NCBI GenBank assembly: GCA_016929435.1
Contig: JAFGIV010000006.1
Coordinates: 8,071 to 72,070 of the forward strand
Source: Candidatus Uhrbacteria bacterium
GTDB lineage: Bacteria > Patescibacteriota > Patescibacteriia > SG8-24
Direction: 5' to 3'
Length of the DNA: 64,000 nt
Shown: positions 9,015 to 59,004 of the stretch, piece by piece
How positions within the stretch are numbered: the first letter of the stretch is position 1
How the letters are laid out: each line of letters opens with the position of its first letter
The notes under the pieces: generated by a model
The model's input: the letters and a program-made list of their open reading frames with translations, nothing else
Database searches by the model: none
Told to the model about the DNA's origin: nothing
Program-made: the position numbers and the translations under genes

Positions 9015-9036
9015 GCCGTTGGGCATCTGAAGACGA

Positions 9037-9065
9037 CCGGAACGGGCGAACCCGTTCCGGTTTTC
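9037..9065 (+). terminator. Rho-independent terminator
   Basis: ccggaacggg-cgaa-cccgttccgg perfect hairpin followed by tttt. Confidence 0.8.
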
Positions 9066-9141
9066 GTTACCCGCCAATACGCCCACGGTTGGGGAAGGGG
9101 AGGGAACGGCGTTGCCCGTGAGGTTTCGGTAGGTTCCTTAA

Positions 9142-9780
9142 ATGCTGCCGCCCGTTTTGGATGGGCAATGTTTGCAAAATAGAAAAAGTTATTTTATCAA
9201 ATTAGGAATAGACACAAATAACATAGTATCAACTAATTTGATACACGAAACCAATGTGGCGGTGGTTGATGAAAAAGACAGGGGTCAAATCCTCCCCAAT
9301 ACCGACGGACTGATGATAACCGCCAAGCAAGGCGTTTTCCTGACGGTAACGGTAGGGGATTGTGTCCCGATATATTTTTTTGATAAAAACAAAAAGGTTA
9401 TTGGTTTAGTACACGCTGGTTGGCGCGGCGTTATAAAAAATATTTCAAAATCATTGATTGATAAAATGGCAAATGAATTTGAGTCAAAATCAGAAGACAT
9501 ATCTGCCCATATTGGTCCCCATTTGCAGAAATGCCATTTCGAAATAAAAGAGGATATTGTGCCGCAATTTGATGGCGAGTTTGTCTTGAGAGAAGACCGC
9601 ATCATGAAAGTTGATTTACGATCCATGATAAAACAACAACTCCTGTCACTTGGCGTAAAATCGGAAAATATAGACTCAAGTGATGGATGTACCTTTTGCG
9701 ACAAGGAAAAATATTTTTCATATCGTAGAGATAAACCAGAAAAAGTGCAGTCAATGATTGCGTATATAGGCATGATATAA
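9142..9780 (+). CDS. pgeF: PgeF/YfiH family (DUF152, Cu-oxidase_4) protein, apparently 5'-truncated at a GC-content junction
   Basis: VGDCVPIYFFD, LVHAGWRGV, CTFCDKEKYFSYRRD and SMIAYIGMI match the YfiH/PgeF core. Compared with E. coli YfiH, about 35 aa are missing from the N-terminus (the STRxGGxS region). GC content drops sharply at about 9176 inside the ORF. Confidence 0.6.
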   Translation: MLPPVLDGQCLQNRKSYFIKLGIDTNNIVSTNLIHETNVAVVDEKDRGQILPNTDGLMITAKQGVFLTVTVGDCVPIYFFDKNKKVIGLVHAGWRGVIKNISKSLIDKMANEFESKSEDISAHIGPHLQKCHFEIKEDIVPQFDGEFVLREDRIMKVDLRSMIKQQLLSLGVKSENIDSSDGCTFCDKEKYFSYRRDKPEKVQSMIAYIGMI

Positions 9781-9983
9781 TAGGGAATGTTCGTTTTTTG
9801 GCATTCACTCTCGTCCCTCTTCCCGTATGGGGTTTCGGTTTTCTGAAAAACCCGTTCCCCAAACTCTTCCCCGTTACGCCGTGCCGAACCCCCCATGTCC
9901 GCAACATTAGGTGAAATACACGGAAAGTCTTGTCGGTAAGATGCTCAAAAGTAATCAATTTTTCATTTATTATGAACACGACA

Positions 9984-10028
9984 ACAGAAAAAGCCATACC
10001 TTAACGGTATGGTTTTTTCTGGTAGGCC
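9984..10028. repeat. att-like direct repeat, copy A (tRNA-Glu 3' tip plus downstream hairpin)
   Basis: acagaaaaagccataccttaacggtatggttttttctggtaggcc matches 14150-14194 (acagcaaaagccacgccttaacggtgtggcttttgctggtagccc) at about 38 of 45 nt. Ends with the TGGTAG(G/C)CC tRNA 3' terminus. Confidence 0.6.
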
Positions 10029-10253
10029 AGATACTCGCCCAGTGGAACCAGCTTATCCCGGAGCTTAAGGCTTGGGCGGCGTTTGAGGAGGTTCTTAAAA
10101 ACGAGGCTAGATCTGGGATTTTGGTAGGTGGTTAGAGTCTGACAAGGGGGAGTGGAATCAGTGTCATGAGAGATAGCATGGAACAACTTATTGTAGAAAA
10201 TTTAAAGCACGGACGTGGTAAATGCCCGTGCTTTAAATTTACAGTTCCGCGGT

Positions 10254-11018
10254 CTATGAGCCTGAAGCAAAGATATATAAGTCTGGATTGATATAGATAT
10301 CGTCTGGGGTAACCCAGTAGCCACCGTTGTAATCAATATTTTTGCTAGCGGAGTATTCGTAGCCCTTGTATGGCAATTTACTACAGTACCAGTTACTACT
10401 CGTATATTTGGATGTTGGCGTATAGAATGGCTCGCCAGCTTGATTGCGGATGTAAGTAACCGCACCGTATCGGTTCGAATAAGTCACAGATGGAAACCAG
10501 CCACCTTGTGCAGTATCATAATTGTTTCGGATAGACGATTTTGATTGTCTGCCGACTTTGTCACATACATCCGGTTCAGAACTGCAGATTCCGGAATCAG
10601 GGTATGCGCTCCAGAAAGGTCTTTCTGAAAGGTCATTTGGATCAGATTGATAGGCGCTATCAAAGGTTGCCACATGCTTCCATGTGCATACTACACCGTC
10701 AAAGAATTCGCAGCCTGGATTGGTGACAAATACTATGTCACCGTAATCGAAATAGACAAACGAAATGTTGTTGGTTCCCGTGTTAAGCAAGCTAACATCA
10801 GATTTATTTGGGAGGTTTTTTTGATTGGCTACATACGTAGTGTCATTTTTTAGGTTCAACACCGGAATTTTTGGGATATGTTGTTGCGATTTCATCTTAT
10901 CCATTGCCACACCGTGCTGTATGGCAGCATCTGTCAACTGTGGTGTTTCTTGGGCCATGGCCCCGCTTGAAAGCAAGACGCCAAATGTGATTGAGAGTGC
11001 TATGGCTAATTTTTTCAT
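10254..11018 (-). CDS. Secreted hypothetical protein (signal peptide), low-GC island cargo
   Basis: MKKLAIALSITFGVLLSSGAMA|QE signal peptide. Aromatic and Cys-containing mature domain. AT-rich codon usage distinct from flanking DNA. Confidence 0.65.
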   Translation of the reverse strand: MKKLAIALSITFGVLLSSGAMAQETPQLTDAAIQHGVAMDKMKSQQHIPKIPVLNLKNDTTYVANQKNLPNKSDVSLLNTGTNNISFVYFDYGDIVFVTNPGCEFFDGVVCTWKHVATFDSAYQSDPNDLSERPFWSAYPDSGICSSEPDVCDKVGRQSKSSIRNNYDTAQGGWFPSVTYSNRYGAVTYIRNQAGEPFYTPTSKYTSSNWYCSKLPYKGYEYSASKNIDYNGGYWVTPDDIYINPDLYIFASGS

Positions 11019-11034
11019 ACTTTTTTGTGAAAAG

Positions 11035-12249
11035 TTAGTTTGTGATAATGGTCGGGTTGCCCTGTAGGTTTATGGTGTTGATATTTTTGAAAGAGCTTAA
11101 TGAGAAAATTTGGATGTCTTCATTTCCTGGTCGAGTTACAAATATCTCATTATTGATGATTATAGCATCTTTTGCCGCAAAGAGATACTGGTCATGAGTA
11201 TCCACGTCGTCAATCAGGTCCCCTGTTTTTTTGTCTATGATGACAATGCCCCCTTTTTCTGTTAACGGGTCACCGGTGCTGTCAGAATATATCATTAGGA
11301 CATAATTTCTGTGAATTAATAATTTTGGATTAGAATGTCTTGGGGTGACAAGGTATTTGGAGTCGTCTTTTATTTTGTTGTAAATAACCAGAACAGTATT
11401 GCCTTTCGGGTAAACAGTTTCTTTAGATATTTTAACATCGTTTTGTTCATTATAGTCACCTATAAACGGCATCCAGTAGGATTCACTTGGCGGATCATAG
11501 GCTATGTCAGCAGGATATACGTCAGCAATTTTTTTAGTAATTAGTAAGTCGATACTGCTGGAAAAATCAGGATAGACAATGGCTACATTGTTGCCCTCGT
11601 TTCCTCCAGATCCATGCATAATTGGTATGTACACTTGGCCGTCATTTAATAGCCGAGGCTTTCTGGGTGATCCCGGCAGGTTTTTGACAGTTTGTATTTC
11701 ATTCGTCTCAGAATCTAGAATTGATATTGCCCACCCGCTGCCATCTTTGTATTCAAATGAATGGACGATGTAAGCATTTCCTTGGTTGTCGAAAGTCATC
11801 TGTTCTGGGAGTGCCTCAGACTGTATTTTTGCTACAATTTTTTCTTCGTTTGGATTGATGATCGCAATATGGGCTGTGATTTTTTTTTTGCTCGACGACT
11901 GTTCTTTTGGCTTGACCGATACGCTTGCGTAGAGATGGCCATTTGGAGCAAAATCTATATCGGCGACGTAGTAGTACTTTGGGTCGGCGATTTGGAGACC
12001 GTGTCCGATCTGCTCTCTGGTTTTTGCATTAAAAAAATATACGAAGTTTTTGTTGACTAAGATTGCAAACTGATTATCATCGCGTTCGATATTTGGCAGG
12101 CGTCCAACATGTTCCAGCCCTAATTCAGCATCGTTATTTTTTGGTGTACGACTCTTGTGGCATATAGCGCCAACAGCACATGTTGCCACGAGTGCGATGA
12201 TTGACACGGTTACCATTGATAATTTTATTTTAGTTCGTGGTGTTTGCAT
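11035..12249 (-). CDS. Membrane-anchored beta-propeller-like protein (YVTN/YncE-like repeats), island cargo
   Basis: N-terminal TM (VTVSIIALVATCAVGAI). Repeated blades such as ISILDSETNEIQTV and IVIIDKKTGDLIDDV. AT-rich. Confidence 0.65.
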   Translation of the reverse strand: MQTPRTKIKLSMVTVSIIALVATCAVGAICHKSRTPKNNDAELGLEHVGRLPNIERDDNQFAILVNKNFVYFFNAKTREQIGHGLQIADPKYYYVADIDFAPNGHLYASVSVKPKEQSSSKKKITAHIAIINPNEEKIVAKIQSEALPEQMTFDNQGNAYIVHSFEYKDGSGWAISILDSETNEIQTVKNLPGSPRKPRLLNDGQVYIPIMHGSGGNEGNNVAIVYPDFSSSIDLLITKKIADVYPADIAYDPPSESYWMPFIGDYNEQNDVKISKETVYPKGNTVLVIYNKIKDDSKYLVTPRHSNPKLLIHRNYVLMIYSDSTGDPLTEKGGIVIIDKKTGDLIDDVDTHDQYLFAAKDAIIINNEIFVTRPGNEDIQIFSLSSFKNINTINLQGNPTIITN

Positions 12250-12349
12250 ACTGCATGTAGAAAAGTTGTATTTTTAAATACGTTTCATAGAAATTATATA
12301 TGGTAATGAAAGATAGCAAAAGATTGATATTTTTAGAGCAGGCCGGCTA

Positions 12350-12403
12350 CGCGCCCAGTGGAACACGCTTTGGAGTGTCCCCCATACGTTAGACAGACTT
12401 CCC
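12350..12403 (-). pseudogene. Pseudo-tRNA fragment (D-arm/anticodon-arm half related to tRNA-Glu)
   Basis: gtgtcccccatacgttagacagacttccc versus the tRNA-Glu gene gtgtcctaaccgttagacgaacgggcc (shared cgttagac, gtgtcc, cacgcttt). Also shares a 13-nt CGCCCAGTGGAAC motif with the sequence just right of repeat copy A. Confidence 0.3.
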
Positions 12404-12428
12404 ACGGAGAGGGCATAATCAAGAACGT

Positions 12429-12705
12429 ATGGCAAAATACGTAGACAGGGACCTGAAGGAACAGGTTCTCCGGGCCGTCAGGGACGGCATGAAGGTCTCC
12501 TGGGCCAAGGCCAAGTTCGGGGTCAGCGACAACGTCGTGTGCGGCTGGCTCCGGGTCCAGACAGACAAAAAGCCAGGACCTTGCGGCCCTGGACTGGATT
12601 GAGATCGAGAGGCGCCTGGACAGCCTGCCCCGGAAGTCGCTCGGATACCTTACGCCCAACGAGGCACTGAATCAATACCTGGAGGGTGGTGCAATTAAGG
12701 GTTGA
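12429..12705 (+). pseudogene. Decayed IS30-like (rve/DDE) transposase remnant: N-terminal HTH fused out-of-frame to the C-terminal tail
   Basis: MAKYVDRDLKEQVLRAVRDGMKVSWAKAKFGVSDNVVCGWLR (HTH), stop, then frame-shifted IERRLDSLPRKSLGYLTPNEALNQYL, which resembles the IS30 C-terminal LNNRPRKTLGxKTPxE motif. The segment is GC-rich inside the AT-rich island. Confidence 0.5.
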
Positions 12706-12769
12706 ACTTCGGGAAATCATAGGGTATACTCCTATTAAGGCGTGCGTATTCACAAATTAATATTTTTTT

Positions 12770-14032
12770 ATGTTTTTCATAAGATTAAAAATTGCATCGA
12801 CGGCATTTTCCTTGTTGGCGGTCATGTTGCTTTCGGTTACTTTGGCCGTGCCGACGGCCAAGGCTGACGGGTATGTCAATCTAACCTCACCAAATTATAC
12901 GGAGTATGGCACTACACTGACGGCCGGAGAACACGTTACGGTAAAGTGGGGAAGCGCATTGTCCAGCGTTAGTTTGGTTGACGCAACAGTATGGGTAAAA
13001 GAGTCGACGTCTACCGGTTCAAATGACGTTTTTTATTCTAATATTGCCGTTAACGCACCCCCAACGCATAGCGGCATAACTTGGACGGTTCCTCAGGAGC
13101 TTACCGGAAAGGCCATAGCCTTCCGGGCGGAAACGAAGGATGCCTACGGAAACCATCTTGGATTCTCTCACAGCGATGTCTTCACCGTCATTTCCCAATC
13201 AAATAACCAGAAAACTGTCAGTCATATCAGCATGACGTCTCCATGTCATTCAGGTATTAATTCTCCATTTGTGGTCGGTGATTATGTGCAGATCAAATGG
13301 GGAAATGTATCCTCTGATATCCGTACCGTAGATCTGTCAGTTTGGGCCAAGACCCCGTACGAATCGACGGAACAGCTCTATTCGAACATTCTTCTAAGCG
13401 CCTCTCCAAACCATGGTGGCGTATCGTGGCAAATCAGTCAGGATTTGTCGGGGAAGAACATTTCGTTTAGGGCTAATGGAAAAGACGCCTACGGAAACCT
13501 TTTGGCTTCCGACAGTACTAATGTTTACAGTGTCGTATCCAAACCAGTTGCGACCCAAGCAACAGGGGTAAGCTATCAGAATTGGGTATCTGAACAAGCA
13601 ATGTCTGCCCCTACGATATCAGCCGATAAGGGATTGCCTTCGACTATCGTGTCGGGTTGTACGACCGGAACCCTGTTCAGAATCGCCTCCAACCCAGCAG
13701 TCTATTATTGCGGGACCGACGGAAAGAGGTACGCTTTCCCTGATAGCCACACCTATTTCTCTTGGTACGAGGATTTTTCCGGAGTAATTACGGTGTCCGA
13801 CAAAAGTATCGGAGCGATTCCCTTTGGTGGGGTTGTCTTTATGAAGCCTGGAACTCTGGTTAAGATCGCTTCTGACCCCAAGGTTTACGCTGTTTCCAAG
13901 GGAGGCACCTTGAGGTGGGTCAGGACTGAATCTGTTGCTTCACAGCTGTGTGGCACAAACTGGAATCGCAAGGTTATTGATATCTCACCGGCATTCTTTT
14001 CGAATTACGTAATGGGTGAGACTTTAGAGTAA
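12770..14032 (+). CDS. Secreted protein with two about 130-aa internal repeats and a C-terminal domain shared with CDS 45530..47287
   Basis: Signal peptide MFFIRLKIASTAFSLLAVMLLSVTLAVPTAKA. Repeats (...VTVKWG...FRAETKDAYGNHLGFSHSDVFTV / ...VQIKWGN...FRANGKDAYGNLLASDSTNVYSV). The C-terminal about 120 aa (LFRIASNPAVYYCGTDGKRYAFPDSHTYFSWYEDFSGV...DPKVYAVSKGGTLRWV) are homologous to the C-terminus of the protein at 45530..47287. Confidence 0.75.
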   Translation: MFFIRLKIASTAFSLLAVMLLSVTLAVPTAKADGYVNLTSPNYTEYGTTLTAGEHVTVKWGSALSSVSLVDATVWVKESTSTGSNDVFYSNIAVNAPPTHSGITWTVPQELTGKAIAFRAETKDAYGNHLGFSHSDVFTVISQSNNQKTVSHISMTSPCHSGINSPFVVGDYVQIKWGNVSSDIRTVDLSVWAKTPYESTEQLYSNILLSASPNHGGVSWQISQDLSGKNISFRANGKDAYGNLLASDSTNVYSVVSKPVATQATGVSYQNWVSEQAMSAPTISADKGLPSTIVSGCTTGTLFRIASNPAVYYCGTDGKRYAFPDSHTYFSWYEDFSGVITVSDKSIGAIPFGGVVFMKPGTLVKIASDPKVYAVSKGGTLRWVRTESVASQLCGTNWNRKVIDISPAFFSNYVMGETLE

Positions 14033-14149: not shown

Positions 14150-14194
14150 ACAGCAAAAGCCACGCCTTAACGGTGTGGCTTTTGCTGGTAGCCC
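14150..14194. repeat. att-like direct repeat, copy B (overlaps the tRNA-Glu 3' end and its terminator hairpin)
   Basis: See copy A at 9984-10028. Hairpin gccacgcc-ttaa-cggtgtggc flanked by A and T runs. Confidence 0.6.
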
Positions 14195-14260
14195 GTAGGG
14201 GAATCGAACCCCTGTTCCCACATTGAAAGCGTGGTGTCCTAACCGTTAGACGAACGGGCC
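14186..14260 (-). tRNA. tRNA-Glu (anticodon TTC)
   Basis: Reverse complement GGCCCGTTCGTCTAACGGTTAGGACACCACGCTTTCAATGTGGGAACAGGGGTTCGATTCCCCTACGGGCTACCA folds as a cloverleaf: 7-bp acceptor (G1-U72 wobble), D-arm GTCT/GGAC, anticodon stem CCACG/TGTGG with loop CTTTCAA (UUC), T-arm AGGGG-TTCGATT-CCCCT, encoded CCA. Confidence 0.9.
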
Positions 14261-27147: not shown

Positions 27148-28100
27148 ATCCGTTTTCCGGTCAGTTTTTCGAACAGATCGGCTCCGGCGGCGGCGGCGAC
27201 GGCGAACGGCCGCAGGGCCGCAAGGACGGGAGCCTGCCAGGGACGGCCGTGTTTTCGGAAATAACGGACCATGCTGGCCGTGAAGATGGCCTGCTTTTCC
27301 GCATGGCCCATCAGGGCAAATCCCTGGCCGACATGGTCATGGGCCTCGGCATCGGCAGAGAACCTGATCCGCAGGCCGGCCTTTTGGGCTCGGAGGCAGA
27401 AATCCACCTCCTCAAACCAGAGGTGGTAGCCCTCGTCCAGGTAGCCAATTCGATCCAGGAGTTCCCGCCGGAAGGCAAAGAAAGATCCCCGAACCTGATC
27501 AACATCCTGCGACCGGTAGTAGTCGAAGTCACGGAACATGTACCGGTCCAGCAGCTTGGGGAACAGCCGGCCGATCTTCAGCAGGATGCAGAGCTGGGAG
27601 GCGAAGTCCGGAAAACGGCGGACCGAACCGATCGGCCGGCCGTCATGTCCGATCAGCCTGATCCCGGCAACGCCGACGGTTTGGTCTTCGGTAAGGAGGT
27701 CGTGAACCGTCTTTAGGGCTTTGGGTTCCACCAGCATGTCCGGGTTGAGCAGGATGCAGGTTTGGCCCTTGGCCAGTCGCAGGGCCTGGTTGTTGGGCCC
27801 GGCGAAACCGGCATCCCAATCGTTGGTGACGAGGCGGACCCGGGGAAATTCCCGGCGGATCATCCTGACCGTGCCGTCTTCGGAGTTGTTGTCCACGACC
27901 AGCACCTCAAAACTGACCCCGTGATCCAGGGAAAATAGGCGGGTCAGGTTGGCGCGCAGCAGTTCCCTGACCTTCCAGGTGACGATTATCACGCTGACCG
28001 CCGGTGTCCTTGCCGGTTCTGGCCGGTCGTTGTCTCCTTGCATGATTTTGCCGGTGATACTAAGATTTAGCTTAGGCACGGAAACCGCAATTTCAGTCAT
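27144..28100 (-). CDS. Glycosyltransferase family 2; true start probably the internal MQGDN at 28043
   Basis: VSVIIVTWKVRELLRANLTRLFSL...VVDNNSEDGT...DAGFAGPNNQA. Its 5' end is partially duplicated at 29791-30000. Confidence 0.85.
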   Translation of the reverse strand: MTEIAVSVPKLNLSITGKIMQGDNDRPEPARTPAVSVIIVTWKVRELLRANLTRLFSLDHGVSFEVLVVDNNSEDGTVRMIRREFPRVRLVTNDWDAGFAGPNNQALRLAKGQTCILLNPDMLVEPKALKTVHDLLTEDQTVGVAGIRLIGHDGRPIGSVRRFPDFASQLCILLKIGRLFPKLLDRYMFRDFDYYRSQDVDQVRGSFFAFRRELLDRIGYLDEGYHLWFEEVDFCLRAQKAGLRIRFSADAEAHDHVGQGFALMGHAEKQAIFTASMVRYFRKHGRPWQAPVLAALRPFAVAAAAGADLFEKLTGKRI

Positions 28101-29749: not shown

Positions 29750-29789
29750 CATAAAGTCTCCTGTGCCTGCCCTTCGGGGGGTGTAGGGG
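29750..29789 (+). repeat. Promoter-proximal leader repeat RepX copy 1 (CATAAAGTCTCCTGYGCCTGCCCTTCGGGGGRGTGT)
   Basis: About 38 of 40 nt identical to 33887-33927. Both copies start about 7 nt after a TTGAC(G/A)-17-(-10) promoter with identical spacing. Confidence 0.6.
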
Positions 29790-29790
29790 T

Positions 29791-30000
29791 GGGCAAAACC
29801 GGAGTTCCAGTCGTTGGTTATCAGCCGCACCGCCTGAAACCGTTGCCGGACCATCCGGACCGTACCGCCACCTGAGCCGTTGTCCACGACGATCACCTCG
29901 AAACGGACACCGTGGTCCAGCGCAAAGAGTCGCTTTAGGTTGTCATGCGGCAGCTCCCGAACCTTCTATGTGACGATGATGACGCTGACGTCGATTTTGG
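29791..30000 (-). pseudogene. GT2 glycosyltransferase 5' fragment (partial duplicate of the 5' end of gene 27144..28100) with in-frame stop
   Basis: Minus-strand translation VSVIIVT*KVRELPHDNLKRLFALDHGVRFEVIVVDNGSGGGTVRMVRQRFQAVRLITNDWNSGFA; about 70% nucleotide identity to 27786-27990. Confidence 0.6.
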
Positions 30001-33558: not shown

Positions 33559-33607
33559 GGGGGTCAATCGCACCGTGTCGGTTGCGCCACCGGTCCTTTG
33601 GCACGCA

Positions 33608-33664
33608 TAAAACCGCCAGCTTGCGCTGACGGTTTTGTGGTGGGCGGCAGAGGAGTCGAACCTC
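33608..33664. repeat. 57-nt direct repeat: displaced copy of the tRNA-Val 3' end (28 nt) plus its downstream hairpin
   Basis: aaaaccgccagcttgCgctgacggttttgtggtgggcggcagaggagtcgaacctct; 56 of 57 identical to 34702-34758. Confidence 0.8.
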
Positions 33665-33852
33665 TATCAGCCAAAATCAGGGGGAGGCTAAAGCAAGTCA
33701 AAAAACCAAGAAAAGAGTCTCTACACAAACAAGATACCGATTATCACAAGTCGCCGTTGGCCAGCGTCAACCGCCGCAACCCGTCACTTCGTGGGCAACC
33801 CGTGGGCAACACTTCGGGGGAGGTGGTGGGGTGTGGTTGGGGATAAAGCCTA

Positions 33853-33886: not shown

Positions 33887-33927
33887 CATAAAGTCTCCTG
33901 CGCCTGCCCTTCGGGGGAGTGTGCAGG
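33887..33927 (+). repeat. RepX copy 2: leader hairpin followed by a T-run (terminator/attenuator-like)
   Basis: cataaagtctcctgcgcctgcccttcgggggagtgtgcagg followed by acttttatttttatt. Imperfect stem TCCTGCGC/TGTGCAGGA enclosing CCC-TTCG-GGG. Confidence 0.55.
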
Positions 33928-34684: not shown

Positions 34685-34701
34685 TTTGATTGAGGCAACA
34701 A

Positions 34702-34758
34702 AAAACCGCCAGCTTGTGCTGACGGTTTTGTGGTGGGCGGCAGAGGAGTCGAACCTCT
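34702..34758. repeat. 57-nt direct repeat (intact copy: tRNA-Val 3' end plus terminator hairpin)
   Basis: Pairs with 33608-33664. Confidence 0.8.
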
Positions 34759-34807
34759 GACCTCAACAATGTCAATGTTGCGCTCTAACCAACTGAGCTA
34801 GCCGCCC
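34731..34807 (-). tRNA. tRNA-Val (anticodon GAC)
   Basis: Reverse complement GGGCGGCTAGCTCAGTTGGTTAGAGCGCAACATTGACATTGTTGAGGTCAGAGGTTCGACTCCTCTGCCGCCCACCA: canonical cloverleaf, anticodon loop TTGACAT, CCA encoded. Confidence 0.9.
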
Positions 34808-37537: not shown

Positions 37538-38791
37538 TCAGGCCGGGCGGACCGGCCTAATGTCAGGGTGCCCCAGTTCCGGGGCGGCGGTCACCCCGTC
37601 GGCTTCCTGTTTCCTTTCGGGCTCAAAAGGGCTTTTTCGGCCCAACGAACGGTAAACCGTGTCCAGAACCGACTTTTCCGCCTCCAGCAGGTTGGCGTTC
37701 GGGAAGCAGATTCGGGCCAACCGGCGGTCGCCGTTCGGTTTCAGGCCGGCCATTAGCCTGGTGGCGTCCCCGTGCCTTTCCGAGCTGATTAGGGCGCATA
37801 TCCCGGCCGGATGGCCGTCCTCGTTCCGGTGTCCCTGCTCGTAGATGACCCCGCAGATCTCCGCTTCCGGGGAATTGGCCATCATCTCCTCCATGATGTC
37901 GGGCAGTTGGTTTTCCGAGGCCCCGGAATGGATGAAATCCTGCCTGACCAGCAGTGTCCAGGCGAACTGGGTGCTGGCGTCGTGTTTGAGGCGGGAAAGG
38001 GCCCTTCCCCACAGTTTCAGGGTCGGGAGGGAACGGTTGCGGTAGAGGTGACGGACGATTTCCTCCCGTTGTCCTCCGGCGGCGATCAGTTCAGAGGCGA
38101 CCTTTAGGGTGTGGGGCGTGACCTGCGGCGTCCGGAAGCTCCTGGTCTTGGCTATCAGTCCGGTCAACAGGCAGGTGGCTGCCCCCTCGTCCAGGTCGGT
38201 CCGGTCGATCTCGTGCAGGACGTTAAATACCACCTCGGCCGCCGATGAGGCGGTAATGTCGATTATGTTGATGTTTCCGAACCGTTCGTTGGCCGGGTCG
38301 TTGTCGATGTTGACCACCGGAAGGCGGTGGAAGAAATCGGTGTTCTCCCGGAAGATTGCCCCAAGCGAGTCGTAGGAAGGCGTGTCCAGGCAGACGATCA
38401 GGTCATACCGGAAATCCGATGCGGATAGGGCGATGTCCTGATCCCGGAACTGTCCGGATTTCGGGGTGACGTATATCTTGAGGCGATCTTCGGCCAGGTC
38501 ATAAGACAGGTCCTCTATTCCGGCCCGCGATACGTCCAGGCTGATGATGAATTTCTGGAGTTTCCCCAAGCTTGGCCTGATGTCGGTGACGCCGGGGAGG
38601 AACCCCACGTGTTTCGGGTCATCGAACCCGTCGGCTGCGATGTCGGCCCTCTTGCCCCAACCCTTCAGTATCCTGGCCAGCGCCAAGGCCGAACCGACCG
38701 CATCCGGATTCCATTCCTTCCGGAAGGTTATCAGGCAGTTGGTGGCGCGGTTGACGGTCTCCAGGAACTGTTTCCCGGTGTTGAGGGGCAT
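37538..38791 (-). CDS. DHH-family (NrnA-like) protein with degenerate DHH motif
   Basis: NPDAVGSALALARIL (DHH motif I region), DHHA1-like C-terminus. The canonical DHH is replaced by VNIDND. Start set at internal MPLNTGK (38791) to avoid a 58-nt divergent overlap with valS. Confidence 0.75.
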   Translation of the reverse strand: MPLNTGKQFLETVNRATNCLITFRKEWNPDAVGSALALARILKGWGKRADIAADGFDDPKHVGFLPGVTDIRPSLGKLQKFIISLDVSRAGIEDLSYDLAEDRLKIYVTPKSGQFRDQDIALSASDFRYDLIVCLDTPSYDSLGAIFRENTDFFHRLPVVNIDNDPANERFGNINIIDITASSAAEVVFNVLHEIDRTDLDEGAATCLLTGLIAKTRSFRTPQVTPHTLKVASELIAAGGQREEIVRHLYRNRSLPTLKLWGRALSRLKHDASTQFAWTLLVRQDFIHSGASENQLPDIMEEMMANSPEAEICGVIYEQGHRNEDGHPAGICALISSERHGDATRLMAGLKPNGDRRLARICFPNANLLEAEKSVLDTVYRSLGRKSPFEPERKQEADGVTAAPELGHPDIRPVRPA

Positions 38792-38919
38792 CGGTTCGGG
38801 CGGTGATGGATAAGGAATCACCTTATAGACCCTGGGAAATTGTGTCAAGAGAGCCGCCATCCCTTCCCAAAACCCCGCTTTTGGGCCAAAATATACGGGT
38901 CATCGCTAATGTGCCACTT

Positions 38920-41643: not shown

Positions 41644-41714
41644 AGCCCCCAAACGTTCTGAACCCTAAATCCCCAGCGCCCCCCTAAGTCCCCCAATACT
41701 GGGGGACTTAAAGT

Positions 41715-41845
41715 GTGGGGTGGGCGCGCTCGGATATTTGTCTTGGCCCCCAAACCCCCTCCCTGCGGGAGACCTGCGCCTTCAGGGGCTTAAGGGGAAG
41801 GGGATTCCGGAACGAAAAAAAACCCGAGAGATCGGGTCTTTTTGG
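41715..41845 (+). repeat. Intergenic repeat R1 (alpha + beta modules: GCGCTCGGATATTTGTCTTGGCCCCCAAACCCCC...TCAGGGGCTTAAGGGGAAGGGGATTCCGGAACGAAAAAAAACCCGAGAGATCGGGTCTTTTTGG)
   Basis: Shares the alpha core with 42640-42712 and the beta terminator module with 43205-43272. Has a 21-nt insertion relative to R2. The beta hairpin loop is inverted relative to R3. Confidence 0.7.
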
Positions 41846-41874
41846 AAGTTGTTTTGGAGAGATTTGTGAGAGGT

Positions 41875-42549
41875 CTATGTCATGTTTTTCAGAGAAGAAT
41901 TTATTTTCTCCTCGGCTCTCCGGACGGCTTCTTTCAGGTATCTTTCTGCTGCCGGGATGTAATTGGTTTCGTATCGGTCTTTCTCACGACACAAACCCAG
42001 TCGTTGTTTTTCTAGGCTACGCACCTTTTTTACTATTTTTTCCGCATTGTCGAGATCCTTGTCGGTGAGTTTTTTTAATTTTTCGCACATTGATTTGAGT
42101 AGTAGGCCGTCGATTTCATCGACCTCTAACCTCAGTGCCTTAACCCGCTTTCCGCCGAAATGAAGCAGTTTTTTCGTCTGCACAATCGTTGGCGGTCCAT
42201 TTAGTCCGACATGAAACCCGGCGAGTTTTTGTTCCTTCGCCTTTCTGACCAGAATCAAGACCGGAACAACCGTAACGGTCAGTAATAAAAAGAATATCAG
42301 CATCAGAACGCTGAATATTTTTGTGATCATTTTATCAATTATATCGCACCCTTCCCTTGTTTCCCATCGGTAATCGATGGTTTTTTGAGACCTGTCGAGT
42401 GGTGCGACTATGAAGCCGATCATCCGTTCGTTGCAGAGCGGAGACTGTGTCAGAAAAAGTTTCACGTACAGGTGGCCTATGATCAGCCACGTTAAGATTG
42501 CCAGTGACAACAGAACTATCCACATCTTTACCTCCCTGACGGCGTTCAC
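41875..42549 (-). CDS. Hypothetical membrane protein (2 TM + coiled coil), low-GC
   Basis: 224-aa ORF, about 42% GC, between repeats R1 and R2. TM helices WIVLLSLAILTWLIIGHLYV and IFSVLMLIFFLLLTVTVVPVLILV. Confidence 0.5.
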   Translation of the reverse strand: MNAVREVKMWIVLLSLAILTWLIIGHLYVKLFLTQSPLCNERMIGFIVAPLDRSQKTIDYRWETREGCDIIDKMITKIFSVLMLIFFLLLTVTVVPVLILVRKAKEQKLAGFHVGLNGPPTIVQTKKLLHFGGKRVKALRLEVDEIDGLLLKSMCEKLKKLTDKDLDNAEKIVKKVRSLEKQRLGLCREKDRYETNYIPAAERYLKEAVRRAEEKINSSLKNMT

Positions 42550-42639
42550 CGTCTTTCGTTGTTAATTTGCGAACCGTTTGCCTGAAGCTTAGCGGGAGTC
42601 CGGGGAGGAGTCAAGGGGGTTGCGCTCTTGCGGGGACCG

Positions 42640-42712
42640 GCGTAGGGTGGGAGCGCTCGGATATTTGTCTTGGCCCCCAAACCCCCTTCAGGGGCTTAAG
42701 AGGAAGGGGATT
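42640..42712 (+). repeat. Intergenic repeat R2 (alpha module; contains left 34-bp IR 42667-42700)
   Basis: gggtgggagcgctcggatatttGTCTTGGCCCCCAAACCCCCTTCAGGGGCTTAAGaggaaggggatt. Confidence 0.7.
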
Positions 42713-43172
42713 AATTCAAATCTCATATGGGATTCCCCTCTGTTTCCGGTGCGGTTGGCGTGGCTAACACCTGCACCAAGAAGATCTATCCGGAGTTGGC
42801 GGAAGCAGCCAAGAGAATGCGGGACAATCCGACCGATACTGAGGCCCTGGTTTGGGCCCGCCTTTCCGGCAGACAGTTGGGGCACAAGTTCAGGAGACAG
42901 CACGTCATCGACCGTTTCATTGTCGATTTCTTCTGTCTTGAGAAATCGCTGGTCGTGGAGATCGACGGCGGAATTCACAATCAGACCAAAGATAGGGATG
43001 CGGAAAGGGATAGAATATTGAAAGTGTTGGGCTGTCAGGTATTGCGTTTTTCGAATCGGCAGGTATGGGACAATCTCGACGGGGTAATCGCCACCATTCG
43101 TCGGGAATTGGATAAGGGAATAAAAACTAAAATTTCCTCTTAAGCCCCTGAAGGGGGTTTGGGGGCCAAGAC
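42667..43172 (+). mobile_element. Candidate small mobile/selfish element: DUF559 gene bracketed by perfect 34-bp inverted repeats
   Basis: IR-L 42667-42700 gtcttggcccccaaacccccttcaggggcttaag is the exact reverse complement of IR-R 43139-43172. Single gene between them (DUF559); its stop codon lies inside IR-R. Confidence 0.5.
42727..43143 (+). CDS. DUF559 (Vsr/restriction-endonuclease-like fold) domain protein
   Basis: EALVWARLSGRQLGHKFRRQHVIDRFIVDFFCLEKSLVVEIDGGIHNQTKDRDAERDRILKVLGCQVLRFSNRQVW matches the DUF559 consensus. Likely start is the internal M at 42817. Confidence 0.8.
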   Translation: MGFPSVSGAVGVANTCTKKIYPELAEAAKRMRDNPTDTEALVWARLSGRQLGHKFRRQHVIDRFIVDFFCLEKSLVVEIDGGIHNQTKDRDAERDRILKVLGCQVLRFSNRQVWDNLDGVIATIRRELDKGIKTKISS

Positions 43173-43272
43173 TAAGCGGCACGCCCGGTGGGGGTGCCAT
43201 GGCCCCCGTAGGGGGATTTAGGGGAAGGGGATTCCGGAACGAAAAAGACCCGATCTCTCGGGTCTTTTTGGA
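43139..43272 (+). repeat. Intergenic repeat R3 (inverted alpha core = right IR, then alpha-tail + beta terminator module)
   Basis: cttaagcccctgaagggggtttgggggccaagac ... gggggatttaggggaaggggattccggaacgaaaaagacccgatctctcgggtctttttgg. The hairpin acccga-tctc-tcgggt plus T-run acts as a bidirectional terminator. Confidence 0.7.
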
Positions 43273-43283
43273 AAGGGAAGAAT

Positions 43284-43580
43284 TTATTCCCTCCCCAGCT
43301 CTCTCTCGATGCGTGCATAGAGTTCGGGGTATAATCTTTTTCTTTCCGTGTACCATCCCCCGAATTCTTCAACGGTCATCGATTTAACTTCCATGGCGTC
43401 TCGTTTCAACTTTCGGAGCTCCCTAAGCTCCTTTAGTTTGTAGTGTCTCCTTTTAGGACGTTTCAGGCGGTTTCGAGGGTTTTTCTTCCCCGATATCCCC
43501 CCTTTTTTCTTGATCGAAACGGTCATGGCCAGGATGACCACGATCGCCATTATCACGATCGCCATTATCAGATAGACCAT
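43284..43580 (-). CDS. Small N-terminally TM-anchored basic protein (hypothetical)
   Basis: MVYLIMAIVIMAIVVILAMTV followed by a Lys/Arg-rich segment. Internal 15-nt DNA direct repeat (atggcgatcgtg...). Moderate GC. Confidence 0.4.
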   Translation of the reverse strand: MVYLIMAIVIMAIVVILAMTVSIKKKGGISGKKNPRNRLKRPKRRHYKLKELRELRKLKRDAMEVKSMTVEEFGGWYTERKRLYPELYARIERELGRE

Positions 43581-43698: not shown

Positions 43699-44697
43699 AT
43701 GGAAATTTCCCATTGTTACAGGCGGGCCTTTCGGGCCATGGGCCGGGCCAAACGGCTCCTGGCCGTCTGTCACCGCCGTCCGGACGGCGATGCCTTGGGG
43801 TCCACGGCCGCCGTGCTCCTCTGGTGCCGTCGGCAGGGGATAGCGGCCAAGGCCTTTTGCCTTGATCCCATACCACCGAGCTTCGGTTTCCTTCCGGAAT
43901 CCGAGCGGTTTACGTCCGATCCCGCCGTTTTCGGAGAGGGATGGGATACGGTGGTTGTCCTGGACTGCGGCGACCTCCAGCGGATCGGACATCCGGGGGT
44001 GGCCGGCGGCTTCCCGTCCGTCGGCCCGCACCAGCCACCGACCGTCATTGCCGTTGACCACCACTGCACCAACGACGGCCGTTATGCCGACGTATCCGTC
44101 ATTGATCCGCAGGCCTCCTCCACCGCTGAACTTGTCCTGGGCATGTTCCGAGAGAACGGCGTGACCGTTGATTGCGATTTGGCCACCTGCCTCCTGGCTG
44201 GGGTTGCCGGGGACACCGACATGCTGACCAATCCCGCCGCCTGCCGTTCGGCCTTCCGGATGGCTTCCGAGCTCCTGTCCGAGGGGGCTGATTGGCGTTC
44301 GGCGATCGGCCTTTTCGTGCGGAACCGGTCGATTCCCTCCCTGCGTCTCGTGGGCCGGGCCATGGCCCGGCTGAAGGTCGATCCCCAGACCGGGGTGGCC
44401 TCAACGGCCGTATTTCGGTCCGACTGCCCGGATGGGAGTGATTTCCTGGCGGACGGCCTGGTTGACGCCATCGGAGGCGCCATGGATGCGGAGGTGATCC
44501 TGGTGCTGAAGGAAAGGGCGGACGGGACGGTTTCCGGCAGCTTCCGGACGGTCGGGGAGGCGGATACCGCATCCGTGGCCCAGAGGCTGGGGGGAGGCGG
44601 ACACCGGAAAGCCTCCGGTTTCACCGTCACCGGCCGGATCGTGGAAAGGGAACACGGCTGGACGGTGGAGAGGGAAGTTGCCCCCCAGGATCATTGA
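43699..44697 (+). CDS. nrnA: DHH/DHHA1 phosphoesterase NrnA (oligoribonuclease / pAp phosphatase)
   Basis: HRRPDGDALGS, VVLDCGD, VDHHCTN (DHH), GGGHRKASG (DHHA1 GGGH). Alternative start at 43738. Confidence 0.85.
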   Translation: MEISHCYRRAFRAMGRAKRLLAVCHRRPDGDALGSTAAVLLWCRRQGIAAKAFCLDPIPPSFGFLPESERFTSDPAVFGEGWDTVVVLDCGDLQRIGHPGVAGGFPSVGPHQPPTVIAVDHHCTNDGRYADVSVIDPQASSTAELVLGMFRENGVTVDCDLATCLLAGVAGDTDMLTNPAACRSAFRMASELLSEGADWRSAIGLFVRNRSIPSLRLVGRAMARLKVDPQTGVASTAVFRSDCPDGSDFLADGLVDAIGGAMDAEVILVLKERADGTVSGSFRTVGEADTASVAQRLGGGGHRKASGFTVTGRIVEREHGWTVEREVAPQDH

Positions 44698-56583: not shown

Positions 56584-57053
56584 TATGTCTGGGAGGTTGG
56601 CCAGACGGTCGCCCCGGTGACGAACCGGGGAGGAAAGTCCGAACACCCGTTCCGGCGCAAGCCGGGACGACCGGCGATAGTCGCTAACGGCGACCGGGTA
56701 TAAGGCGAAAGTGCGGCCGGCAACGGCCGAAAGGCCATGGCCGCAACTCGTCGAAGCCCAGGGAAAGTGCAACAGAAAACACACCGCCTGAACCCCGAAA
56801 GGGGTGAGGATTCGGATGAAGCCGAAAGGCCGACCCGAACCAGGTAAGGTTGAAATCGTGGGGTAAGGGCCCACGCGGGAGAGCCGGGTGACCGGCCCCG
56901 TGGAAAACGCCTATCCGGTGCAAGAGCAAGTTTGGTAGCTCGCATTCCGTTCCCAAAATCGGGGCGGAGGAGGCGGTCGGCAACGGCCGCTCAAGAGAGA
57001 TGACCGTCCGTTCCCTCCGGGGGACGACAGAATTCGGCTTATCGACCGGCCTC
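56584..57053 (+). ncRNA. rnpB: RNase P RNA, bacterial type A
   Basis: Conserved P4 GGAGGAAAGUCCGAACACC. AGUGCAACAGAAAACACACCGCC. CAGGUAAGGUUGAAAUCGUGGGGUAAGGGCCCACG. 3' GACAGAAUUCGGCUUAUCGACCGGCC pairing with the 5' end. Ends are approximate. Confidence 0.85.
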
Positions 57054-57061
57054 AAACGTCG

Positions 57062-57090
57062 AAACCCCTGCCCAAACGGCAGGGGTTTCG
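57062..57090 (+). terminator. Terminator hairpin after rnpB
   Basis: aaacccctgcc-caaac-ggcaggggttt; the T-run is weak. Confidence 0.5.
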
Positions 57091-57195
57091 TGATAAATTA
57101 CAGTTAGTTATTTGGCTGTTTTAAGCCATAATATTAACTATGTTTAGTTATTTTTATCTAATAATTAGATATTTGATACAATATTTTGTATTAAC

Positions 57196-57224
57196 TTGAC
57201 AGTTAATTATGGATACTCTATAAT
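57196..57224 (+). promoter_or_regulatory. Sigma70 consensus-like promoter (TTGACA-17-TATAAT) in an AT-rich islet
   Basis: Perfect -35 and -10 hexamers. Upstream direct repeats gttagttattt x2. Confidence 0.6.
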
Positions 57225-57262
57225 AAAAAACATAAGTTATTAAGAGCTATGGCTTAATAATT

Positions 57263-58450
57263 ATGATCAGAAAGATAAAATTCAGTAATTTCTATTCCTT
57301 TAATGGGGAACAGGAGATTGATTTTACGGCGACCAAGAAAAAGAACGACTATAGTTATTATAATTCGCCGGTGGGCGATCAAATCACCAAAGTGGCCGGG
57401 TTTATTGGTGATAATGCTTCCGGAAAGACGAATATTCTTCGTGTTTTTAGTTTTCTGGGGTATTTTATCTGCAGCCCATCTCGTCCGACCCTAGTTGATT
57501 TGCCTTTTATTGCCTATAAGGCTTTTTTTGGCAATTCAGAACCGTCAAGTTTTTATATAGAATTTGAAATAGACCAAGACATATACAAGTATTCCCTGAC
57601 CTTGAAAAACAACATTGTCGAATCTGAGAGTTTGAACGTCAAAAAAATCGGCAGTTTGGGTGCGTCGGTGAAGGTGTTTTCAAGGACACCAGACGGAGTA
57701 AAGCTAAATGATGAACTGTTCCGCGGTTTTGATGAGATGGAAGGGATGAAGAATATTCGCTCTGATGTTTCCTTGATTTCTTATGTTAGGGCTAATTATC
57801 AGATTGATGTAATTGGCAAGATTTTTAGTTATTTTTCGAATTTCGGCTTCAACATAAACGAACGGGGTGACAAGTTTGGTATCGGATATTCGGCAATCAA
57901 ATATCTGGAAGACGAACAGGTGAAGACAAAAACGGATAATTACTTCATAGGGTCCAATACCGGTTTGAAGGGTTTTAAGGTTGAAAGGGATAACATAAAA
58001 AACGAAAGGGGGGAGGATATTGTCCGTATCTCTGTTTGGGGTATCCATAACACGGAAAAAGGCGATACGCTGCTTTATTCCGATTACGAATCGACCGGAA
58101 CGAAATCGCTGTTCTGCATGATCGATAAGTTGACGTTGGCCATCAAAAATAACGGTGTGGCGATAATTGACGAAATCGAAACCGGTCTGCATCCGGAAGC
58201 GCTGTATAAGTTGATTGGATACTTCATCGACGAGAACGAGGAAAGCCGGGCCCAGCTGATCTTCTCTTCACATTCCTTGGAATTCATGGGTAAGTTGGAC
58301 ATGCAACAAATCTATTTGGTGGAGAAGAATGAGGATGGGGAAAGCCGGGCATATCGCTTGGATTCTGTTGAAGGTGTAAGGTCGGATGATAATTTTATGG
58401 CCAAGTACATGTCCGGAGCCTATGGGGCCTTTCCGGACATTCGGGTTTAG
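57263..58450 (+). CDS. AAA_21-family ABC-like ATPase (RloA/AriA/AbiLi-like), anti-phage module component A
   Basis: N-terminal IKFSNFYSFNGEQEIDF...AGFIGDNASGKTNILRVFSFL (Walker A). C-terminal VAIIDEIETGLHPEALYKLIGYF...QLIFSSHS (Walker B/D-loop). About 33% GC versus about 60% background. Confidence 0.85.
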   Translation: MIRKIKFSNFYSFNGEQEIDFTATKKKNDYSYYNSPVGDQITKVAGFIGDNASGKTNILRVFSFLGYFICSPSRPTLVDLPFIAYKAFFGNSEPSSFYIEFEIDQDIYKYSLTLKNNIVESESLNVKKIGSLGASVKVFSRTPDGVKLNDELFRGFDEMEGMKNIRSDVSLISYVRANYQIDVIGKIFSYFSNFGFNINERGDKFGIGYSAIKYLEDEQVKTKTDNYFIGSNTGLKGFKVERDNIKNERGEDIVRISVWGIHNTEKGDTLLYSDYESTGTKSLFCMIDKLTLAIKNNGVAIIDEIETGLHPEALYKLIGYFIDENEESRAQLIFSSHSLEFMGKLDMQQIYLVEKNEDGESRAYRLDSVEGVRSDDNFMAKYMSGAYGAFPDIRV

Positions 58451-58458
58451 GGTGTTCT

Positions 58459-58950
58459 ATGTGTCCTTATCTCCTTTATGGCGAGGGCAGACGGGATAGA
58501 AAATTTTTGGAGGCTTTAGCTTCTGTACCGCAGTTTCAGTACCATACGAAAGGATGGATACCGAAATTCGACAATTGGCACGGATGTTCCGCCAAGAATA
58601 CGATAGAGGGGTGCCGCAAGGCCTTTTGTAAATATGGGGCCAAGTTTACCATTTGTCTGATAGATATTGATGATCTTAAGCATGACTATCCGGAAGATTG
58701 GGACGAACAGAAGTTGAAGATAGAGCAAGACGAAGTGGGTTGGCTATCCATTGTTTGGCAATACGAAAATGCCGAGGATGAATACAGGAAGGTCATCCCG
58801 GATCTGTACAACGGTGATAAGACTGCTAAAAACAGGGAAGCTGTGAGAAGAATAGCTGAGTTTGTCAATTGTGACCTTTGGAAACGGATAATGGAGGAAT
58901 TCGAGAGGAAAGCGGAATTCGAGAAAAAGAAACAGGAAAAAGACACTTGA
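58459..58950 (+). CDS. Small Toprim-like (RloB/DUF4435-like) partner protein, component B
   Basis: YLLYGEGRRDRKFLEALAS (Toprim Glu) and FTICLIDIDDL (DxD) about 55 aa later. 8 nt after the ATPase gene; same low GC. Only 163 aa, which is shorter than typical AriB/AbiLii. Confidence 0.55.
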   Translation: MCPYLLYGEGRRDRKFLEALASVPQFQYHTKGWIPKFDNWHGCSAKNTIEGCRKAFCKYGAKFTICLIDIDDLKHDYPEDWDEQKLKIEQDEVGWLSIVWQYENAEDEYRKVIPDLYNGDKTAKNREAVRRIAEFVNCDLWKRIMEEFERKAEFEKKKQEKDT

Positions 58951-58964
58951 ATACTTTATAGAAT

Positions 58965-58995
58965 TAAACAACCGCCCCGAAGGGCGGTTGTCTTT
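58965..58995. terminator. Bidirectional terminator
   Basis: aacaaccgcccc-gaa-ggggcggttgtc followed by ttt. Confidence 0.7.
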
Positions 58996-59004
58996 AAGTT
59001 CGAA

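Follow-up and report, generated by a model that had tools for sequence, protein, structure and literature searches.

The window analysed here is a 64,000-nucleotide stretch of DNA from a Candidatus Uhrbacteria bacterium, and our subject is a small gene downstream of valS that encodes a DUF559 nuclease and lies between two inverted repeats. The gene (42727-43143, plus strand) is intact and encodes 138 amino acids; its assignment to the Vsr-fold PD-(D/E)XK nucleases is based on matches to Pfam and to the Protein Data Bank (PDB) and on its conserved residues. Together with a leader and the two repeats, which we call the arms, it forms a module of about 544 bp (42639-43182, plus strand), as delimited by blastn: the order leader, left arm, DUF559 gene, right arm recurs as a portable cassette at unrelated sites in three other genomes, and repeats of the same layout flank DUF559 genes in several other phyla.

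DUF559 is a very large nuclease family, and to our knowledge hardly any of its members has an assigned role. The protein encoded in the window matches the Pfam profile PF04480 with an E-value of 3.3e-32 and 111 bits against a cut-off of 20.6, over profile positions 3-108 of 109; DUF559 and MTES_1575 are the only Pfam families that the open reading frame (ORF) matches. It also matches the PDB entry 3HRL (E=6e-16) and, at 3e-17 and under the cut-off of that model, the NCBIfam entry PRK09767. All 27 positions that are at least 85% conserved among 121 family members are retained, including D67, E78, D80 and H84 of the D...ExDGxxH motif, and the protein is 100% identical to a Candidatus Uhrbacteria protein held at NCBI. 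PADLOC gave only marginal matches for the gene (DpdF, 7e-4; mREase_II, 1e-3) and none for the adjacent ORFs, and neither PADLOC nor NCBIfam assigned a defence system to it. The ORFs beside the gene and their Pfam matches include no cytosine methyltransferase. The DUF559-domain protein VsrA of Caulobacter is an active DNA-damaging nuclease in vivo; it is chromosomal, SOS-induced and linked to a methyltransferase (PMC12907096).

The arms (42664-42705 and 43134-43175, both given on the plus strand) are 42 nt long and 98% complementary, with an uninterrupted stretch of perfect complementarity at 42667-42705 and 43134-43172. A first-pass annotation of this DNA had described a perfect inverted repeat of 34 nt around a single DUF559 gene with its stop codon inside the right repeat. 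We find the same arrangement, with a perfect repeat of 39 nt; the TAA stop (43141-43143) is the TAA within the CTTAAG of the right arm. The left arm reads TGTCTTGG-CCCCC-AAA-CCCCC-TTCA-GGGG-CTTAAG-AGGAA and thus has the layout C-run, C-run, G-run; the right arm, its reverse complement, reads CTTAAG-CCCC-TGAA-GGGGG-TTT-GGGGG. The 29-nt core of the arms occurs in only two places within the window, and shuffled sequences (n=100) give an expectation of zero. Ahead of the left arm lies the leader GTAGGGTGGGAGCGCTCGGATATTT (42639-42666, plus strand). A candidate weak promoter, TTGCGC-17-TAGGGT at 42619-42647, was recognized by eye; a strict sigma-70 scan of the region returned no promoter, and Rfam contains no family for the region.

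Upstream of the cassette, a second copy of leader and left arm stands without a gene. This copy, R1 (41715-41806, plus strand), ends in GGGGAAGGGGATT and aligns with 25 nt of the leader plus the left arm over 46 nt at 96% and, beyond an insertion of 21 nt, over 28 nt at 96%. The insertion (about 41761-41781) lies inside the loop of the small hairpin of the arm, with a CCT direct repeat on either side. Alignment and direct repeats thus confirm what had been said of R1, a gene-less copy 0.9 kb upstream with a 21-nt insertion. The inserted nucleotides themselves contain a hairpin, CTCCC-TGC-GGGAG, and look like a nested mini-insertion in the same repeat style. We considered R1 as a clean empty site and rejected this, as leader and left arm are present and the right arm is absent; R1 is therefore either a solo left-end unit or what a deletion between the pair of GGAAGGGGATT direct repeats left behind. 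R1 and the stretch after the right arm also have GGGGAAGGGGATTCCGGAACGAAAAA and a terminator-like palindrome in common. The two palindromes, T1 (41816-41843, loop GAGA) and T2 (43242-43269, loop TCTC), for which no strand is given, came from a terminator scan and as an inverted pair of 28 nt at 96%; the module with its flipped loop is present as it had first been described. A flipped loop on identical stems is the outcome that would be expected of intrastrand template switching in a palindrome.

Two further units at the locus resemble the arms. One, CCCCCC-TAAG-TCCCCC-AATAC-TGGGGGA-CTTAAAG (41679-41712, plus strand), lies between the valS stop and R1 and was found by a regular-expression scan; as single-stranded DNA it folds into an 11-bp hairpin (z=-4.8 against shuffles). 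The other, CCCCC-GTA-GGGGG-ATTTA-GGGG-AA-GGGG (43203-43233, plus strand), ends in the same GGGGAAGGGGATT as R1. In all, the 64 kb contain five to six such units, every one of them inside 41679-43233, i. e. in a stretch of about 1.6 kb that includes the gene.

The block layout of the arms is that of a known class of repeats, which were first called BoxC, then PIT (potential intrastrand triplex) elements and more recently TM (triplex motif) or, in Escherichia coli, TMECO repeats (Holder et al., NAR 2015, PMC4666352). There are 23 copies of TM repeats in E. coli K-12 and 3610 in 262 proteobacterial genomes; inverted doublets are frequent, the single strand forms a triplex in vitro, and the repeats have been linked to locus instability (PMC4666352). 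The authors of that study report neither a function nor a link to mobile elements, and an endonuclease or ycjD, the DUF559 gene of E. coli, is not mentioned (PMC4666352). Like BoxC/PIT/TMECO units, the cassette arms consist of a C-stem, a loop, a G-stem, a loop of 2-3 nt and a second G-stem, and the units are G/C-rich, intergenic and found as inverted doublets. The right arm contains the three blocks, CCCC-TGAA-GGGGG-TTT-GGGGG, and the left arm their complement. However, the stem blocks of 4-5 nt in the window fall below the at least 6 nt of the ITxF definition and the 9 nt of the TMECO consensus, the sequence differs, and the units in the window are tied to a gene. We therefore call the arms triplex-motif-like and do not count them as members of the family. 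Longer blocks are found in related cassettes, with 9 nt in Sphingomonas and a TMECO-like unit in Sinorhizobium meliloti, and the arms of the Sinorhizobium and Sphingomonas cassettes fit the TMECO consensus closely. Single arms of the window, as single-stranded DNA, fold no better than shuffles in ViennaRNA, which considers only Watson-Crick pairs. In view of the block layout, the first guess that this was a REP-like (repetitive extragenic palindrome) repeat came close. Earlier work on PIT/BoxC-type elements is reportedly that of Hoyne and Maher from the year 2000.

A looser core of the arms, CCCCCAAACCCCCTNNAGGGG, is present at no fewer than 120 loci in species-representative genomes, compared with about 4 expected by chance according to our own estimate for uniform base composition. 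The matches listed come mainly from Bacteroidota and Chloroflexi, often with several per genome, and are mostly singles or close inverted doublets (the latter at loci L012, L035, L070, L073, L098, L099 and L106); at two loci (L014 and L115), a DUF559 gene abuts the motif. In Chloroflexi, a CCCCCAAACCCCC core stands at the 5' side of a longer element, conserved over about 100 nt, ...GCTGAAAAACA-CCCCCAAACCCCCTCAAGGGGGTTCAAGGTATCC..CTTCGG..GGGGACACCCCC..., which occurs several times per genome in metagenome-assembled genomes (MAGs) of Chloroflexi and Dehalococcoidia (L005, L006, L018, L020, L026, L036, L047, L079, L083, L090, L102, L104, L113, L114 and L122). This element could be a miniature inverted-repeat transposable element (MITE) or a structured RNA in its own right.

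The same module of about 544 bp is present in three other genomes, at loci L001, L002 and L003, and the sites are unrelated to that in the window. L001 and L002 encode the closest homologues of the protein (70-71% identity). At the DNA level, positions 42639-43182 of the window align with 6145-6694 of L001 at 81.5% identity over 551 nt and with L002 at 71%; beyond the module, identity drops to about 50%, and the insertion contexts are therefore unrelated. The leader is kept in L001 (79% identity) and in R1 and partly in L002, as judged from alignments. In L001, a spacer of 167 nt separates the cassette from a complete 16S rRNA gene upstream of it, and in L002 it follows a peptidase-like gene. 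The L003 copy, from a genome of 43% guanine plus cytosine (GC), was found by a scan for the DNA pattern that was blind to the protein: a frameshifted DUF559 gene lies between two arms, and the whole unit fills the gap from the stop codon of a 603-aa ORF to the ATG that starts a 1367-aa ORF. The first-pass annotation had named what would speak against a mobile element, namely that the repeat is found only here or is a terminator of the locus kept regardless of DUF559; this is contradicted by the joint occurrence of arms and gene in three unrelated contexts.

The alignments of these four copies show that the arms are under constraint. The left arm is 92-95% identical between the genomes compared with 68-79% for the coding sequence. 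The positions that do vary have the matching state in both arms of a copy, with outer ends TTGG, TGAG, TGAG and TAAA and a hairpin loop of TC/TC, or of CC/CC in L002, so that the two arms change in concert. Two of the four genes, those of L001 and L003, are frameshifted, which shows that the cassette decays as well as travels. L002 also has an inverted doublet without a gene, the arms of which are 97.5% identical to those of the window. We rejected the idea that this doublet derives from a cassette by internal deletion: both of its arms match the right end of the cassette, and it is therefore an inverted doublet of the right-end unit.

The pairing of DUF559 genes with inverted repeats extends beyond this arm family. 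At L008, L126, L143, L144 and L133, inverted units that share the layout but not the sequence stand on both sides of DUF559 genes: in Bacteroidales (L008), five copies upstream face three inverted copies downstream; the arms have 35 nt and 100% complementarity in Sphingomonas (L126), 39 nt and 95% in Sphingomonas sp. 8AM (L143), where CTTAAG is outermost, and 34 nt and 91% in Sphingobium (L144); in L133, doublets stand on either side of the gene. As the early ones among the roughly 25 DUF559 loci studied in total were partly hand-chosen, we also scored a less biased sample of 12 DUF559 loci, taken from plasmid and chromid records across a wide range of taxa, for a flanking inverted repeat (score of at least 16). 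Seven of these 12 genes reached the score, as compared with 3 of 302 control genes under the same procedure, and two of the three controls are themselves flanked by triplex-motif repeats. The seven are from Pseudanabaena (40 nt, perfect), Deinococcus proteolyticus (53 nt), Sinorhizobium meliloti (114 nt, with a TMECO-like unit), Qipengyuania, Sphingomonas parapaucimobilis, Deinococcus aetherius and Picosynechococcus. A further trace of the repeats is seen in the proteins: P/G-rich C-terminal tails such as PHPNPSPEGEGL, which are the translated C-run and hairpin, occur in 51 of 120 DUF559 homologues but in none of 120 ValS proteins.

The units come in two orientations. The CTTAAG side faces the gene in the window, in L001-L003, in Pseudanabaena and in D. 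proteolyticus; the G-run side faces it in Sphingomonas, in Sphingobium, in L008, in S. meliloti and on the 3' side of ycjD. In E. coli K-12, ycjD has repeats on its 3' side only: the gene ends in one unit, and TMECO no. 9 follows in inverted orientation about 180 nt downstream. A fragment of the ycjD 3' end is duplicated between two downstream BoxC/TM units (L135, 4338-4362 and 4440-4464), which suggests an earlier rearrangement or the remnant of a second cassette. The comparisons show that DUF559 genes and the repeats are physically coupled as a conserved cassette in Patescibacteria, Bacteroidota, Alphaproteobacteria, Cyanobacteria and Deinococcota, with a partial, one-sided form in E. coli. 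A full-text search of the literature found no description of a DUF559-repeat cassette; the only trace is an unexplained enrichment reported by Milman et al., to which we return below. Triplex-motif repeats were also seen around two other genes: in a Chitinophagaceae MAG (L022), repeats at 1339 (plus strand) and 5511 (minus strand) lie within 57-nt inverted repeats around a gene for a 1055-aa resistance-nodulation-division (RND) efflux pump, and in a Bacteroidales MAG (L011) they enclose a MoaC-like gene (1018-1482). These repeats therefore occasionally bracket genes other than DUF559.

Filled and empty sites can be compared in Sphingomonas. In L143 the cassette occupies the spacer between yebC and ruvC, with its arms within 2 nt of the yebC stop and the ruvC ATG. 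In L142, the RuvC of which is 92% identical, this spacer has 40 nt and no repeat, and in other relatives (RuvC 94% identical) it has 247 nt and neither repeat nor gene. A related cassette is thus polymorphic for presence and absence, and since the empty sites carry no repeat, the repeats came with the gene there and were not a prior target. The proposal of homing into a pre-existing repeat is not borne out by this comparison, the sole one of filled and empty sites. In three Sphingomonadaceae (L126, 1932-1935; L143, 2399-2402; L144, 2408-2411), the DUF559 ORF runs through the repeat of the right arm and its stop codon overlaps the ATG of the repair gene downstream (ruvC or ligA), so that the cassette is part of the translational layout of the operon. 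In E. coli, the interval between fabI and sapF carries ycjD and BoxC in 3346-3377 of 5426 complete genomes, and the remainder have the 7.5-kb eefRABCD operon there. The eef genes are inferred to have been lost independently at least twice, with ycjD taking their place each time (PMC12817139). Conserved housekeeping genes recur as neighbours of the cassettes (16S rRNA, valS, yebC/ruvC, recN/ligA, yqeY/dnaG and fabI), a choice of sites that is typical of homing-type elements, and DUF559 genes inserted into operons are always co-oriented with their neighbours.

The setting of the cassette in the window fits a variable spot. The interval from valS to the DHH gene has 49% GC, compared with 62-66% in the adjoining genes, and the cassette itself 52% compared with about 60% for the genome; as far as base composition tells, it is foreign. 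In the nearest syntenic relative (L124, ValS 69% identical), the order valS...DHH-ClpP is kept; the interval holds three unrelated ORFs there, and neither DUF559 nor the repeat. A comparison downstream of valS in related genomes had been proposed at the outset, together with the idea of an insertion hotspot, and the low-GC island with its different content in L124 fits that idea; in L125, the locus is not syntenic. The interval in the window also contains a 224-aa membrane-protein ORF of low GC content (44.7%; 41875-42549, minus strand) without a family match and a small low-GC membrane ORF of 98 aa (43284-43580, minus strand), the 3' end of which resembles that of the longer one (43274-43303 and 41891-41920, 83% identity). 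This suggests a local segmental duplication of repeat, terminator and gene end.

Further afield in the window, two DHH-family phosphoesterase genes lie around valS (37538-38860, minus strand; 43699-44697, plus strand). A 60-nt direct repeat (97%; 33606-33665 and 34699-34758, 1.09 kb apart) overlaps the end of a tRNA-Val(gac) gene (34731-34807, minus strand) and looks like an att-type duplication from an integrated element; near it are a 31-nt repeat (97%; 29750-29780 and 33887-33917) and a reduced GC content (0.50-0.55) between 30 and 35 kb. Two low-GC islands in this genome of about 60% GC, 9000-14000 (0.39-0.48), which adjoins a tRNA-Glu gene (14186-14260), and 57000-59000 (0.37-0.45), are probably horizontally acquired segments. 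In addition, there are a tandem-like duplication of 134 nt (90%, 162-nt spacing; 5338-5471 and 5500-5633) and a dispersed repeat of 211 nt (73%; 27788-27998 and 29779-29989).

How can these observations be brought together? The reading that we favour, with about as much confidence as doubt, is that the module is a selfish, horizontally spreading nuclease cassette, that its ends, conserved and acting in cis, are the inverted triplex-motif arms themselves, and that copying initiated by the nuclease is followed by decay. As in models of free-standing homing endonuclease genes, the nuclease would nick or cut a naive site beside conserved housekeeping genes, or the repeat structures, and recombination or repair would copy the cassette into the break. 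The arms would then be protein-binding half-sites, substrates for recombination or template switching, or both; a homodimeric PD-(D/E)XK enzyme acting on two inverted half-sites may be a natural possibility. Copies would subsequently decay to pseudogenes and to gene-less repeat remnants such as R1. That the cassette has been mobile in this genome we infer from the comparisons with other genomes, and the recognition of arms or empty sites by the enzyme and the copying step are proposed by analogy to homing.

Several observations weigh against this reading. According to ORFs, Pfam and NCBIfam, there is no transposase or recombinase domain in the cassette or beside it. Only four gene-bearing members of this exact arm family were found; a DNA search of plasmid and phage collections with the whole cassette gave no match, and a strict arm pattern had no match in viral contigs and one in metagenome contigs. 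Four of the 12 sampled DUF559 genes lack a flanking repeat, and repeats do bracket the RND pump gene and the MoaC-like gene. For the locus in the window there is no strain-level empty site, the closest ValS being only 69% identical. Finally, the Sphingomonas DUF559 genes are 66% identical at the same yebC-ruvC locus, which vertical descent with losses could equally explain. Target-site duplications, for which the ends of the repeats were to be inspected, are absent: more than one position was tried as the end of the arms in the window, L001, L003 and L143, and none showed a duplication. The flanks read GGATA|TTTGTC...GACTAA|GCGGC in the window, tt/gc in L143 and a/ttt in L003. What remains of the initial suggestion of a small selfish or mobile element is thus a portable and decaying cassette, and what does not is a classical transposon with terminal inverted repeats (TIRs), since both target-site duplication and transposase are missing.

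It is tempting to speculate further that the BoxC/PIT/triplex-motif repeats have their missing cognate enzymes in the DUF559 nucleases and that the two jointly form a phylum-spanning class of nuclease-driven mobile or self-propagating DNA, a tentative proposal that we think possible and hold with considerably more doubt than belief. The Vsr-fold enzyme would recognize the folded or palindromic unit (CTTAAG, hairpin, TTT and G-run), and in this way both mobilize the cassette that encodes it and give rise to the gene-less repeats. Partly overlapping with the selfish-cassette reading is a view modelled on REPs and their RAYTs (REP-associated tyrosine transposases), in which DUF559 is a trans-acting enzyme that generates or disperses BoxC/PIT-type repeats and the cassette is a domesticated or semi-selfish gene for repeat maintenance, which lies between the substrates of its own product and does not itself move. 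The geometry is indeed that of REP-RAYT systems, with one gene between inverted units and gene-less singles and REPIN-like doublets elsewhere, and the multi-copy CCCCCAAACCCCCTNNAGGGG core with its two DUF559-abutting loci fits as well. In the E. coli genomes sampled, about 19 places carry repeats when ycjD is present and about 7 when it is absent, and 29 copies in strain 55989 contrast with 1 in IHE3034 (PMC4666352). However, this difference in copy number tracks the phylogroups, and the correlation is therefore confounded by phylogeny; O157-type genomes without ycjD still have about 12 copies, no more than 11-13 are present where a ycjD variant (92% identity) was acquired independently, and most E. 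coli copies are at fixed loci (PMC4666352). Moreover, most repeat-rich loci have no DUF559 gene within 8 kb, and the triplex-like units of the window do not leave the 1.6 kb around the gene. We regard this view as unlikely.

An ordinary solitary repair- or restriction-type gene of the Vsr kind, spread by standard horizontal transfer, with arms that act in RNA as a stem between the 5' and 3' untranslated regions (in stability, RNase III processing or the insulation of transcription), has a slightly better standing, and we consider it rather improbable all the same. The predicted minimum-energy fold of the mRNA pairs the arms (z=-5.8), with the left arm in the 5' leader and the right arm over the stop codon, followed by the terminator; a conserved stem would make the two arms change in concert; and Caulobacter VsrA is an example of such a chromosomal, SOS-induced nuclease (PMC12907096), although that gene has a linked methyltransferase and the one in the window does not. 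A stem requires complementarity alone, yet primary sequence and block layout are kept from Patescibacteria to Sphingomonas, Bacteroidota and E. coli BoxC. The outer-arm mismatches, read by eye, have no G-U bias, many copies of the same units have no gene, and promoter or terminator activity of PIT elements was absent in earlier work. The repeats might also drive programmed inversions that switch the nuclease gene on and off with respect to a promoter outside them. Perfect 39-nt inverted repeats around the whole gene and the candidate promoter outside the left arm would suit such a switch, and "DUF559 domain-containing protein" is enriched with an odds ratio of 14 among predicted targets of programmed inversion (Milman et al. 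2023). But repeats around DUF559 genes produce this enrichment automatically, there is no invertase or recombinase nearby, the Sphingomonas cassette has one orientation in all 7 places listed, from 11 contigs, and the operon-inserted genes never deviate from the direction of their neighbours; we judge a switch very improbable. Palindromic chimeras can arise in metagenome assemblies, so that a chance similarity or an assembly artefact around a local terminator or REP had to be weighed, too. As shuffles give an expectation of no matches and the same architecture recurs in three independent assemblies from other samples, which excludes an artefact, its probability is negligible.

How does the cassette compare with systems already known? 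A DUF559 member with BoxC/PIT-like arms resembles, by analogy, a REP-RAYT system or a free-standing homing endonuclease gene, and has the defining features of neither. RAYT genes encode HUH/Y1 transposases and are flanked by REPs. The cassette shares with REP/REPIN-RAYT systems the single-copy gene flanked by inverted, short structured repeats as well as the gene-less singles and inverted doublets; in contrast, it encodes a Vsr-fold PD-(D/E)XK nuclease rather than an HUH/Y1 transposase of the IS200/IS605 type, its unit has a third G/C block besides the hairpin, and there is no high-copy dispersal within the window. Free-standing homing endonuclease genes, known from "intronless homing" as in the case of the seg and mob genes of phage T4, are likewise small nuclease genes in short housekeeping spacers, co-oriented and often decayed, and they are polymorphic in presence, as are the related cassettes of Sphingomonas and E. 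coli. We know of no homing endonuclease genes with conserved inverted terminal repeats; the cassette has such arms, and it involves neither an intron nor an intein. Its nuclease falls into the same superfamily clade as the homing endonuclease I-Bth0305I (PDB 3r3p), a Vsr-like enzyme that has been grouped with Vsr and DUF559 (PMC3424549). The Vsr-like nucleases of E. coli (Vsr) and Caulobacter (VsrA) have the same fold and belong to the same family, but the cassette has no linked cytosine methyltransferase, and an architecture with conserved arms has not been described for Vsr genes. MITEs and TIR transposons, of which the Correia elements of Neisseria are an example, are similar in their terminal inverted repeats of about 40 nt, their gene-less derivatives and their intergenic insertion; they differ from the cassette, which has no target-site duplication and no DDE or other transposase, and the arms of which hold an internal hairpin or triplex-type structure.

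Catalogues of BoxC/PIT/triplex-motif repeats go back about 30 years; such repeats became known in E. coli in the 1990s and have been tied to genomic instability. Their coupling to DUF559 genes gives both the nuclease family and the repeats a concrete and testable partner. If the nuclease indeed acts on the repeats, this would account for the spread of the repeats and for the instability of the loci that carry them, and it would also account for the odd P/G-rich tails in annotated DUF559 proteins and for the flagging of DUF559 genes by inversion pipelines. The cassette would then represent a new and very small type of selfish element that lives within housekeeping operons.

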